Positions 21,520-23,828 of a DNA stretch of 64,000 nucleotides are shown here, piece by piece. The translations under genes and the position numbers were made by a program. A model generated the notes under the pieces. The model saw nothing but the letters and a program-made list of their open reading frames with translations. It had not been told where the DNA came from and ran no database searches. This DNA is from Escherichia phage LHE83. Position 1 is the first letter of the stretch, and each line of letters starts with the position of its first letter. The stretch lies in the sequence record OQ561750; one strand, 5' to 3'.

Positions 21520-21693
21520 ATCAAATTTGACCAGACTATTCCTAAAAATAGTAATATGCTTTAAGAGTAATGTGTTATTATTACTCTATCATTAATACCC
21601 TCTATTACCAAAGGTTCTTCCCTCAAAGAACCTTTCATAATAGACAAGGTCTATTAATCAAACTTACTTTACTTAATTTTATTTGAGGTGTTT

Positions 21694-21960
21694 ATGTTAG
21701 TATTAAAATTAGCTTTTTATGACCCGGCAACCAAGACAACCACTACCAAACGTTGTTCTATTTCGTATGAATGTCAATTTGGTGAAGTTGAGACCGACGG
21801 CGAGCCCTTTATGGCAATTGCCGATAGCACATTCGCTAAACCAAAAATAATTCCACTAGTTAACGCTGCGGCTTATCTGGTTGCTCCTGAAGAAATGACT
21901 TATCATACAATTCAGCACATGGCTAAAGATGATAATGCTCCTGCTGGATTTGTAGTTTGA
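21694..21960 (+). CDS. Hypothetical protein (88 aa)
   Basis: ATG after GAGG SD; ends 5 nt before tRNA. Confidence 0.4.
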   Translation: MLVLKLAFYDPATKTTTTKRCSISYECQFGEVETDGEPFMAIADSTFAKPKIIPLVNAAAYLVAPEEMTYHTIQHMAKDDNAPAGFVV

Positions 21961-21965
21961 TTTAA

Positions 21966-22039
21966 GGCCCTGTAGCTCAATGGTTAGCAGCAGTCCCCTC
22001 ATAAGGGAAAGGTTACCGGTTCAAATCCGGTCTGGGCCA
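21966..22039 (+). tRNA. tRNA with anticodon CAU (Met, or Ile2-type reading AUA as in the T4 tRNA-Ile)
   Basis: 74-nt cloverleaf: 7-bp acceptor stem (one U-U mismatch), anticodon loop CUCAUAA, T-arm ACCGG-TTCAAAT-CCGGT; position matches T4 tRNA cluster. Confidence 0.65.
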
Positions 22040-22080
22040 TATTTTAAGAACATAAATACTCTTAGAAATAGGAGATATTT

Positions 22081-22746
22081 ATGTTCCATTACACTTATAA
22101 AATAACAAACAAAATTAATAATAAAATCTATATAGGCGCCCATTCAACCGAAAATTTGAATGATGCATATTTTGGTTCTGGTAAACTCTTAAAAAGGGCC
22201 CAGGCCAAATACGGTATAGAAAATTTCTCTAAAGAAATATTAGAGTTCTTTGACGATAAAACCTCTATGTTTGAGTCAGAAAAGAATATTGTGACTAAAG
22301 AGTTTTTAAAGCGCCCCGATGTTTATAATTTGAAATTAGGTGGTGAAGGTGGTTGGGACCATTTAAACACTGAAGAATATTTAGATAAAAAGAAAGAAGC
22401 TTCCTTAAAAGGAGTTGCCGCTTTTAAAACCAGATTTGAGAACGACCCAGACCTTAAAGAAAAATATCGTAAAATGGGTTCAGAAAAGTTTAAACAACTT
22501 TGGGATAATCCTAAGTATAGAGAGAAATTTTCAAATACTAAATCTTTCTTGGGTAAGACCCATTCAGATGAAACCAAAAATAAAATGAAAGAATCTCACG
22601 CCAGAAATAAACATCAACAAGGTGAAAATAATTCCGGATACGGAAAAATGTGGATTCATTCTTTAGAAGAAAAAGTTTCTAAACGTATTAACAAAACGGA
22701 TATTATTCCTGAAGGTTGGAATAAAGGTCGTAAAATAAAATTTTGA
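22081..22746 (+). CDS. segB: GIY-YIG homing endonuclease, SegB-like, inserted in tRNA cluster
   Basis: 221 aa; N-terminal HYTYKITN...NKIYIGAHS...YFGSGK GIY-YIG pattern; basic NUMOD-like C-terminal repeats; same location as T4 segB. Confidence 0.6.
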   Translation: MFHYTYKITNKINNKIYIGAHSTENLNDAYFGSGKLLKRAQAKYGIENFSKEILEFFDDKTSMFESEKNIVTKEFLKRPDVYNLKLGGEGGWDHLNTEEYLDKKKEASLKGVAAFKTRFENDPDLKEKYRKMGSEKFKQLWDNPKYREKFSNTKSFLGKTHSDETKNKMKESHARNKHQQGENNSGYGKMWIHSLEEKVSKRINKTDIIPEGWNKGRKIKF

Positions 22747-22751
22747 ATTAC

Positions 22752-22826
22752 GTCCCGCTGGTGTAATGGATAGCATACGATCCTTCTAAGTTTGCGGTCC
22801 TGGTTCGATCCCAGGGCGGGATACCA
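22752..22826 (+). tRNA. tRNA-Arg (anticodon UCU), CCA encoded
   Basis: 75 nt; 7-bp acceptor stem, anticodon loop CUUCUAA, T-arm CCTGG-TTCGATC-CCAGG, 3-prime ACCA. Confidence 0.7.
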
Positions 22827-23205
22827 AATGAAGACTATTATATAGTCAAGCCGTCGTATGAAGACTGATTACCAGCATTCACCGGCGCAACAAACAAGAA
22901 ACCGGGTCGCTACCGGTAAGTCGTCGGACTGATGTTCCCTGTTTAAGGACCGGCATTAATAAATCTTTACGATTCGTTAATGTCCCCTTACATCACAACA
23001 GAAACGGCGCACAGAATTATCGATTCGAGGAAATATCTTTGCCGTAAGCCGAGTAGCGTTTTTGACGGAACGTTCGGATATGGTCGAGATATGGCCTTTT
23101 AAAAATATTGAGCGGCGTCAACTACTTAATAACCGGGTTCGAATCCCGGCGTTTCGTACAAACACTTGCCTAGCAGGTGGAACCCCGACAAGGTTACCCT
23201 AGGTT
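22827..23205 (+). ncRNA. ORF-free structured region after tRNA-Arg; candidate small stable RNA(s) analogous to T4 RNA C / RNA D
   Basis: About 380 nt with no ORF, higher GC than surroundings, tRNA-like T-arm element (CCGGG-TTCGAAT-CCCGG) near 23137-23155, ends at intrinsic terminator. Confidence 0.4.
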
Positions 23206-23206
23206 A

Positions 23207-23236
23207 AAGGCCCTTCCGAAAGGTTGGGCCTTTTTT
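23207..23236 (+). terminator. Intrinsic terminator (GGCCC...GGGCC + T6)
   Basis: GC hairpin followed by TTTTTT; identical copy at 23832. Confidence 0.65.
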
Positions 23237-23237
23237 G

Positions 23238-23245
23238 TATAAATA
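23238..23245 (+). promoter_or_regulatory. T4-type late promoter TATAAATA
   Basis: Exact TATAAATA 28 nt upstream of ATG 23274. Confidence 0.5.
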
Positions 23246-23273
23246 TGTAAGTTAAACTAACCTAGGAAATAAT

Positions 23274-23828
23274 ATGAAACTTTTAAAATATTTTAGTTGG
23301 GTTCTGTTGGTCCCACTAGATTTTATCTCTATGGTTCTGGCTGTTATCCTTGCACCATTTGTGGTTCCTTTCCACAATAAAAAGACAGGTAAATTACCGT
23401 ACGGCTTTGATTGGATGATGACATACGATAATCCAATTGACGGTGATAAAGGTCATATTAAACGTTGGGCTAACATCAGGAAAATGCCTGGTGGTGTTTA
23501 TCTCCAGAGGGTAGCTTGGCTATGGCGAAATAAAGCTTATAACTTTGCTTACCATAAACTTGGACGCGATTGTAGCTCAGAATTCCATTATCGTGGTAAT
23601 CCTGACGTTGAATCCGGTTCTCCTGATAAAGCTCATCATGGATGGTTATGGATGTGGAATGACGAAGCATGGGGAGTCTTTGCTTCAGTTCCGTATCTTA
23701 AAGTAGGTGGGATTACCTTTTACCTTCGTGTATACTGTGGTTGGAAACTTAAGAGTCTTTTGTCTCGTAAAATCCCTAAGGCTATGTTAGCCTTCCACAT
23801 AAACCCATTCCGGTTCTACAAGAACTGA
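23274..23828 (+). CDS. Membrane protein (184 aa), late-promoter driven, flanked by identical terminators
   Basis: N-terminal hydrophobic helix (WVLLVPLDFISMVLAVILAPFVVPF); Trp/His-rich body. Confidence 0.55.
   Translation: MKLLKYFSWVLLVPLDFISMVLAVILAPFVVPFHNKKTGKLPYGFDWMMTYDNPIDGDKGHIKRWANIRKMPGGVYLQRVAWLWRNKAYNFAYHKLGRDCSSEFHYRGNPDVESGSPDKAHHGWLWMWNDEAWGVFASVPYLKVGGITFYLRVYCGWKLKSLLSRKIPKAMLAFHINPFRFYKN

Follow-up and report, generated by a model that had tools for sequence, protein, structure and literature searches.

We analysed a 64,000-nucleotide (nt) stretch of Escherichia phage LHE83 (sequence record OQ561750), here called the window. In its segment from 21,966 to 23,236 there are two tRNAs and a segB orthologue, along with three structured non-coding RNA modules (mini-D, RNA D and RNA C), a conserved trailer and a terminator. 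These parts all lie on one strand, and the segment holds no further credible gene. Judged from sequence, it is the counterpart in a T4-like phage (Dhakavirus) of the T4 tRNA-Ile/segB/tRNA-Arg/RNA D/RNA C cluster; alignment to the T4 reference annotation gives the common order tRNA(CAU), segB, tRNA-Arg(UCU), rnaD, rnaC, terminator. A sequence-only reading of this DNA had proposed two tRNAs (anticodons CAU and UCU) separated by a segB-like GIY-YIG gene, followed by about 380 nt without open reading frames (ORFs) that end at a terminator, and had likened the whole to the T4 distal tRNA subcluster plus RNAs C and D. Indeed, ARAGORN calls exactly two tRNAs in the 64 kb, both confirmed by the Rfam tRNA model (gathering score 29 bits), and the GIY-YIG gene, the terminator and the T4 order were found as proposed. 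The ORF-free stretch holds no credible gene; it is, however, 410 nt long (22827-23236), and mechanical ORFs of 40 and 46 amino acids (aa) exist in it. This 410-nt stretch folds with z = -4.6 relative to dinucleotide shuffles.

Coordinates of the features (Table 1) are given as positions in the window.

Table 1. Features of the LHE83 tRNA/RNA D/RNA C locus and the evidence for each
Feature	Position	Strand	Evidence
Middle-promoter-like site (MotA box TATGCTTTA, 12 nt, TATTAT)	21555..21581	+	Pattern search, consensus match only
tRNA, anticodon CAU, T4 tRNA-Ile orthologue (Ile2 type)	21966..22039	+	ARAGORN; Rfam 58.6 bits; 71/74 identical to T4 gene
Hairpin enclosing segB Shine-Dalgarno (GGAG)	22054..22080	+	Fold; virtually identical in T4; X03016 annotates a potential stem-loop
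segB orthologue, free-standing GIY-YIG homing endonuclease, 221 aa	22081..22746	+	Pfam GIY-YIG; T4 SegB identity; synteny
tRNA-Arg, anticodon UCU, reads AGA, CCA end encoded	22752..22826	+	ARAGORN; Rfam 48.8 bits; 75/75 identical to T4
Mini-D, two hairpins, both ATGAAGACT copies	22827..22893	+	Fold z = -3.1; RNA D model match; absent from T4
RNA D (T4 species 2 RNA) homologue	22894..23013	+	About 85% identity to T4 rnaD; covariance model R2, 138 bits; covariation
RNA C (T4 species 1 RNA) homologue	23020..23158	+	136/139 identical to T4 rnaC; minimum free energy fold; covariance model R1, 160 bits; covariation
3' trailer, two small hairpins	23159..23205	+	Near-invariant in window, T4 and Dhakaviruses; fold
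Intrinsic terminator: GC-rich hairpin, GAAA loop, U run	23206..23236	+	Fold about -17.8 kcal/mol; homologous to annotated potential terminator of T4
T4-type late promoter motif TATAAATA, for DUF7338 gene 23274-23828	23238..23245	+	Pattern search; 4 copies on window plus strand

The region is homologous to 766-800 T-even phage records, the closest being those of the Dhakaviruses AnYang, LQ5, IME540, QL01 and KIT01. RB69 and other Dhakaviruses likewise carry tRNA(CAU) and tRNA-Arg(UCU) followed by RNA D and RNA C. The segB gene, however, is missing from RB69 and KIT01; in RB69 an ORF separates tRNA-Arg from RNA D, and some Dhakaviruses have an additional tRNA-Asn. The cluster had also been called minimal; it has only two tRNAs, but this is not unique. 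Since RB69 and KIT01 retain the identical CAU/UCU pair, we regard it as a shared minimal state and no peculiarity of the window. Within the phage collection, segB, mini-D, RNA D and RNA C occur together in the window alone, the best coverage of any record being 92%. The arrangement itself is already known as textbook T4 biology, and the window adds no new kind of system. The interest of the locus lies in RNA C and RNA D, which have gone about 50 years in T4 without a known function and have no Rfam family.

RNA C is 97.8% identical to its T4 homologue, likewise lies between RNA D and the terminator, and shares with it a tRNA-like acceptor stem and T-arm. It differs in the second hairpin, where UA is replaced by CG; one of these two substitutions breaks a pair (C.A). 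The minimum free energy fold has a four-way cloverleaf topology, with a 7-bp acceptor-type stem (23021-23027 with 23150-23156) containing two central U.U mismatches, a long arm of 69 nt in the place of the D-arm, a second hairpin of 26 nt in the place of the anticodon arm, and a canonical 5-bp T-arm with the loop UUCGAAU. This T-arm (23133-23149) is the tRNA-like element CCGGG-TTCGAAT-CCCGG to which the sequence-only reading had drawn attention, and it belongs to RNA C. The topology, the length of the acceptor-type stem and the GGUUCGAAUCC T-arm are those of canonical tRNA. In contrast to canonical tRNA, RNA C lacks a D-loop, a 7-nt anticodon loop and an encoded CCA, has its acceptor mismatches in tandem, and has arms about 5 and 2 times the normal length that touch each other. 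On this predicted fold, RNA C is a tRNA mimic of cloverleaf topology.

We also considered known RNA classes for RNA C. In the window, neither ARAGORN nor Rfam (E up to 10) made a tRNA (RF00005), tmRNA or YrlA call on it. A canonical tRNA was rejected on this ground and on the wrong size of the arms, and a tmRNA or Y-RNA-like identity had no support from either program. RNA C presumably resembles the bacterial Y RNA YrlA and plant-virus tRNA-like structures, a likeness that was checked by Rfam only. More generally, the Rfam search revealed no further known RNA family in the window, either at gathering score over the whole 64 kb or at E up to 10 over 21600-23400.

The fold of RNA C is recovered by RNAalifold from 11 sequences, with compensatory changes in 26 of 45 pairs. 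We extended the comparison to 28 distinct sequences, collected by IMG/VR scans and a covariance model. In this set 94.6% of cells pair, versus 35-45% when the partners are slid by 1-3 columns, and double changes affect 32 of 50 pairs, versus 6-10 in the slid controls; none of 500 shuffles reached this. The alignment was model-guided and leans towards the helices, and an earlier MAFFT alignment gave a matching picture. These comparisons show that the secondary structure of RNA C is maintained by compensatory substitutions.

The two long elements of the fold appear to be joined. At the tip of the long arm, the loop sequence UUGAC (23062-23066) is complementary to GUCAA (23117-23121) in the loop of the second hairpin, and both loops are invariant except for two paired variants: UUGAU with AUCAA in the Tegunavirus type, and UUGGC with GCCAA in three sequences from a second scan in which both loops were left free. 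Thus, the contact is 100% paired in the 28 sequences, with two independent compensatory events at two positions, and none of the 28 carries a one-sided change in the contact loops. As the contact columns are unpaired in the model, the alignment is unbiased towards this contact.

RNA C occurs inside tRNA clusters of at least seven Tevenvirinae genera, including Kanagawavirus, Karamvirus, Tegunavirus, Winklervirus and Mosigvirus. The RNA C pattern had no match in 185,579 bacterial and archaeal genomes (one per species), and the RNA C model matches real tRNA-Gln genes weakly.

RNA D is identical to T4 rnaD at 101 of 119 positions. Its fold consists of a 5' hairpin and a long irregular stem closed by GUCGUCG/CGGCG(C)AC, and the T4 sequence is unchanged in the 5' hairpin, the closing helix and the UCCCUG junction. 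The apical hairpin, in contrast, differs in sequence while keeping its pairing, and the 3' end reads CACAG rather than the CACCA of T4. Across homologues the closing helix takes the form GUCGUC(G/C) with (C/G)GGCG(C)AC, the stem of the 5' hairpin occurs in at least three different sequences, the UCCCUG junction is near-invariant and the apical hairpin is variable. In 21 sequences, 94.4% of cells pair versus 29-51% when slid, and double changes occur in 18 of 33 pairs versus 5-7 when slid. A MAFFT alignment had shifted the register of the 5' hairpin by one column, and the model-guided alignment used instead leans towards the model structure. On these comparative data RNA D is a second covarying RNA family, the structure of which is maintained by compensatory substitutions.

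RNA D extends beyond the Straboviridae. It lies directly after a CAU tRNA in phage W70 (L009, 1418-1595), which is classified in Vequintavirinae, and in at least five other E. coli phages of about 140 kb, and it adjoins tRNA-Asn in viral contigs of 142-153 kb with 9-19 tRNAs (L036, L037, L043, L050, L058 and L063 among the non-T-even loci). Diverged copies follow tRNA-Asn in Karamvirus and Jiaodavirus. Three blocks, AAGUCGUC, UCCCUG and GGCGCAC, are near-invariant across these genera and phage families. Two further ideas about RNA D were discarded. A hammerhead ribozyme (CUGAUG ... GAAAC) lacks helix I, its motif is unconserved in the Karamvirus type, and Rfam gave no match; pairing of the RNA D 3' end (GAAACG) with the RNA C acceptor strand (CGUUUC) fails in other genera, where RNA C has CGUUCC and RNA D does not match it.

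Between tRNA-Arg and RNA D the window has a 66-nt module that T4 lacks. The duplicated ATGAAGACT motif noted earlier lies here, with copies at 22828 and 22858; these are two of the four copies on the plus strand of the window. The module is laid out as a hairpin, AAG, and CCGUCG ... GACUGAU ... CGGCGCAAC, which is the plan of RNA D minus its middle. Over its full length it aligns to the covariance model of RNA D, as the second-best match of that model in the region (10 bits, E about 0.016 in 601 nt by a rough calibration). Among phage records only 26 have mini-D; they come from one Dhakavirus clade, and their copies are 95% identical or more; hence it yields no covariation signal. It may plausibly be a shortened paralogue of RNA D, as this faint match suggests.

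The gene between the two tRNAs encodes a protein that matches PF01541 (GIY-YIG) at 25.5 bits against a cutoff of 22.6; NUMOD3 (19.4 bits, cutoff 20.4) and SegE_GIY-YIG fall just under their cutoffs. It is 75% identical to T4 SegB in amino-acid sequence over 221/221 aa with zero gaps, whereas the genes are only 78% identical in nucleotide sequence. Length, insertion point between the CAU tRNA and tRNA-Arg, and residues Y17 and G19 are those of T4 and T6 SegB. Both residues are catalytic, and mutating them kills T6 SegB (PMC13096335). The hairpin that encloses the segB Shine-Dalgarno probably limits translation, keeping the level of the nuclease low.

T4 and T6 SegB cleave T-arm DNA site-specifically and home in crosses (PMC2330249, PMC13096335). 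The core in T-arm DNA was described as GGTTCRANTCC (PMC2330249), and SITE-seq gave RAWTSGAAC on the complementary strand (PMC13096335). In the window, perfect cores are present in the T-arms of the CAU tRNA (GGTTCAAATCC, 22018-22028) and of RNA C (GGTTCGAATCC, 23136-23146), the latter matching GGTTCRANTCC and, on the opposite strand, RAWTSGAAC. The 64 kb contain no third strict core, where about 0.24 cores are expected by chance, and these two flank segB. The CAU tRNA of T4, in contrast, has two mismatches in the core (AGTTCAAATCT), a sequence also found in KIT01; relative to both, the window tRNA has a compensatory G-C pair in the T-stem, which creates the perfect core adjoining segB. Three CAU-tRNA alleles exist among the close Dhakaviruses (window, KIT01, AnYang, LQ5 and IME540). 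SegB would act as a selfish endonuclease that cuts T-arm DNA and thereby drives the inheritance of its own and neighbouring genes in mixed infections.

The presence of segB is polymorphic among close relatives: AnYang, LQ5 and IME540 have it, whereas KIT01 and ABTNLS3 do not. The two segB-less phages keep RNA C. The three segB-bearing phages share an identical 146-nt deletion of exactly RNA C (relative to 23014-23162 of the window), with the junction GCGCACCG|AACAC, also given as GCGCACCG|AACACTTGCC. RNA C is dispensable, then, for a viable phage. A strict incompatibility of segB and RNA C is ruled out by their joint presence in T4, many Tequatroviruses and the window. Any connection of segB with the loss of RNA C would be a lineage-specific event at most, perhaps one that happened once, and serves as a lead only.

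We compared the two tRNAs with the codon usage of phage and host. The CAU tRNA, by sequence, is of the T4 'tRNA-Ile' (Ile2) type and not an elongator Met tRNA: it is 96% identical to the T4 gene annotated tRNA-Ile, and its nearest E. coli-borne relatives (78-82% identity, mostly on plasmids) are all annotated tRNA-Ile. The plasmids that bear these relatives are 47-93 kb in size. The acceptor stem starts with GGCCC (C4-G69, C5-G68), as in lysidine-dependent tRNA-Ile2, where it serves as a TilS determinant. The CAU tRNA is therefore expected to read AUA after lysidine modification and, together with the UCU tRNA-Arg, the pair should decode AUA and AGA. ATA occurs at 9.2 per thousand codons in the window and 2.4 in E. 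coli (3.7-fold), and AGA at 5.3 and 1.5 (3.5-fold), the window and 50 kb of E. coli K-12 having been treated with an identical crude ORF procedure. Of all codons, these are the top two by enrichment over E. coli, and this over-use explains why these two particular tRNAs are kept. In the whole 64 kb, both codons are about twice as frequent in minus-strand ORFs (ATA 14.1 and AGA 7.7 per thousand) as in plus-strand ORFs (6.8 and 4.1).

Taken as a whole, the segment is very probably the Dhakavirus version of the T4 distal tRNA subcluster, with the expression and roles proposed here. By analogy with T4 and with general tRNA biology, upstream middle or early promoters would give one precursor for the whole unit, and transcription would stop at the terminator. 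Host tRNA-processing enzymes would cut the precursor, with RNase P acting 5' of each tRNA and 5' of RNA C. We propose the last of these cleavages because the 7-bp stem of RNA C stacked on its 5-bp T-arm has the shape of a minimal substrate. In agreement, the ends of RNA C annotated in X03016 lie one nt inside those of NC_000866, such that the RNA would start with the base of the uppermost stem pair, as a product of RNase P should. Exonucleases would then trim the RNA to stable helices, leaving RNA D and RNA C as stable RNAs, and the tRNA-Ile2 type and tRNA-Arg UCU would supply decoding of AUA and AGA. In T4, Northern blots have validated RNAC and RNAD, which accumulate late, as stable RNAs of about 140 and 120 nt, respectively (PMC9697503).

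The function of RNA C and RNA D was stated to be unknown in 2010, 2022 and 2025 (PMC3014915, PMC9697503, PMC12685909), and our literature search, the coverage of which excluded the species 1/2 RNA papers of the 1970s-80s, returned no functional study of either. We tentatively suggest that both have a trans-acting accessory role towards a host tRNA-binding factor, one that depends on the host and is dispensable in some hosts. RNA C would then be a tRNA mimic that cannot be decoded. In favour of action in trans we count the mimicry of tRNA, the lack of variation in the loops, the occurrence of RNA D in more than one phage family, and a convergent single-nucleotide polymorphism (SNP) in rnaD of a T4-like phage adapted to a semi-permissive host (PMC12685909). 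In favour of an accessory role we count the same SNP and the natural deletion of RNA C in AnYang, LQ5 and IME540.

A more specific combination, which we think unlikely as a whole, joins a phage-restricted RNA C mimic acting in trans, a mobile array RNA in RNA D, and loss of RNA C driven by SegB. RNA C would present an acceptor/T-arm minihelix on a body locked by the loop-loop contact and might, for example, be a decoy that draws off a tRNA-targeting defence nuclease, or else an enzyme of processing or modification. In phage tRNA arrays, RNA D would be a second RNA with a mobility of its own, shared by Tevenvirinae and Vequintavirinae-type phages. Cutting by SegB at the RNA C T-arm would explain the precise loss of RNA C, whether repeated or inherited. 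If this were true, both RNAs, which are absent from Rfam, would be new functional RNA classes of phage-host conflict.

Several points weigh against our interpretation of the locus. The processing sites proposed for LHE83 are taken from T4 annotation and from the shape of the fold, and the middle promoter is a consensus match only. The assignment of mini-D goes back to a 10-bit match between nearly identical copies that show no covariation, which makes it a weak one. RNA C could not act as a tRNA, because it has no encoded CCA and no anticodon-type loop. Its loss in three phages fits a weak or absent function just as well, and the same is true of deletions of the T4 tRNA region, which are viable.

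The strongest alternative is a possible one, to which we give weight similar to that of a trans-acting role: RNA C, RNA D and mini-D may have no function of their own and be stable leftovers, or cis-acting scaffolds, of tRNA-cluster transcripts. Their structures would be kept for correct processing or nuclease protection of the neighbouring tRNAs. Consistent with this, the RNAs always lie within tRNA clusters or adjoin them, in the same orientation, RNA C was deleted precisely in three viable phages, and a function has gone unreported for 50 years (PMC3014915, PMC9697503). However, near-invariant blocks and loops persist across genera, and those of RNA D (AAGUCGUC, UCCCUG, GGCGCAC) across families. 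The tertiary loop-loop contact of RNA C is preserved by compensatory change, which a mere spacer would not need. Moreover, the RNA D core is kept beside different tRNAs (Arg, CAU, Asn) or, in RB69, after an ORF, and the SNP in rnaD is both convergent and adaptive (PMC12685909).

Alternatively, RNA C might matter as DNA, its T-arm being kept as a SegB site that promotes homing, recombination or segmental amplification around segB. The T-arm does fit the published SegB core on both strands (PMC2330249, PMC13096335), a second strict core, the sole other one in the 64 kb, lies across segB in the CAU tRNA, and three relatives with segB have lost RNA C at an identical junction. We nevertheless find this improbable. 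RNA C shows compensatory changes at the RNA level in phages without segB, for example KIT01, RB69 and phiR1-RT. In Q7622 and Kc304, which belong to two genera, RNA C is kept although its T-loop reads UGCAUGC or UGCAUUC in place of UUCGAAU, which preserves the stem and destroys the SegB core. In T4 and many Tequatroviruses, furthermore, segB and RNA C coexist.

The idea that the gene-free region codes for small proteins, a 40-aa ORF (22980-23102) and/or a 46-aa ORF with a TTG start (23062-23202), is highly improbable: the ORFs exist mechanically and many phage records carry 'hypothetical protein' features here, but both ORFs overlie covarying RNA helices and are not credible as genes, substitutions track base-pairing and not codons, the ORFs span the RNA D/RNA C boundary and the T-arm, T4 yields RNAs of the right size (PMC9697503), and the reference T4 annotation is misc_RNA.

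For the question of what RNA C and RNA D do, the comparison supplies several handles: well-supported folds of both RNAs, a tertiary contact in RNA C that can be tested, RNA D motifs that do not vary, an occurrence in more than one phage family, and natural RNA C deletion variants among very close relatives of LHE83. The comparative structures and natural deletion variants make the question of function somewhat easier to attack. The cluster also ties in with present studies in which phage tRNAs and SegB are tools against defences that target tRNAs (PMC13096335).

The signals that bound the unit are recognizable by pattern and fold. The middle-promoter-like site lies upstream of a small ORF and the tRNA cluster, at the position of T4 PM2 (annotated in X03016), and may act as a middle promoter. 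A sigma-70 scan gave fewer sites than shuffles and nothing convincing inside the RNA unit. At the other end, the 3' trailer is retained even in relatives from which RNA C is deleted, and trailer and terminator together have the look of a 3'-end-derived small RNA. The terminator reads AAAGGCCCUUCC-GAAA-GGUUGGGCCUUU, followed by further U's. Its stem has two U.U mismatches in the window, whereas that of T4 is perfect, and these mismatches caused a strict consensus scan to miss it. A weak Rfam match to BjrC68 (21 bits against a gathering score of 39) was rejected, being just the terminator hairpin. The late promoter motif directly downstream appears to mark the end of the RNA unit and the start of the next.

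Some database records of this region look to be in error. ARAGORN reports a 95-nt 'tRNA-Met' over part of the RNA C homologue of phage id4496 (L006, 1551-1645), as does the GenBank record; this call, like the 'hypothetical protein' coding sequences placed over RNA C and RNA D in many phage records, looks like an annotation error. Record PV654520.1 ('Pseudomonas phage vB_PSGBLB0006', 142 kb, labelled as a P. aeruginosa phage) contains a T6-like tRNA/segB-sized ORF/tRNA-Arg/RNA D/RNA C region that is almost identical to that of T4, and its host label or assembly looks doubtful.

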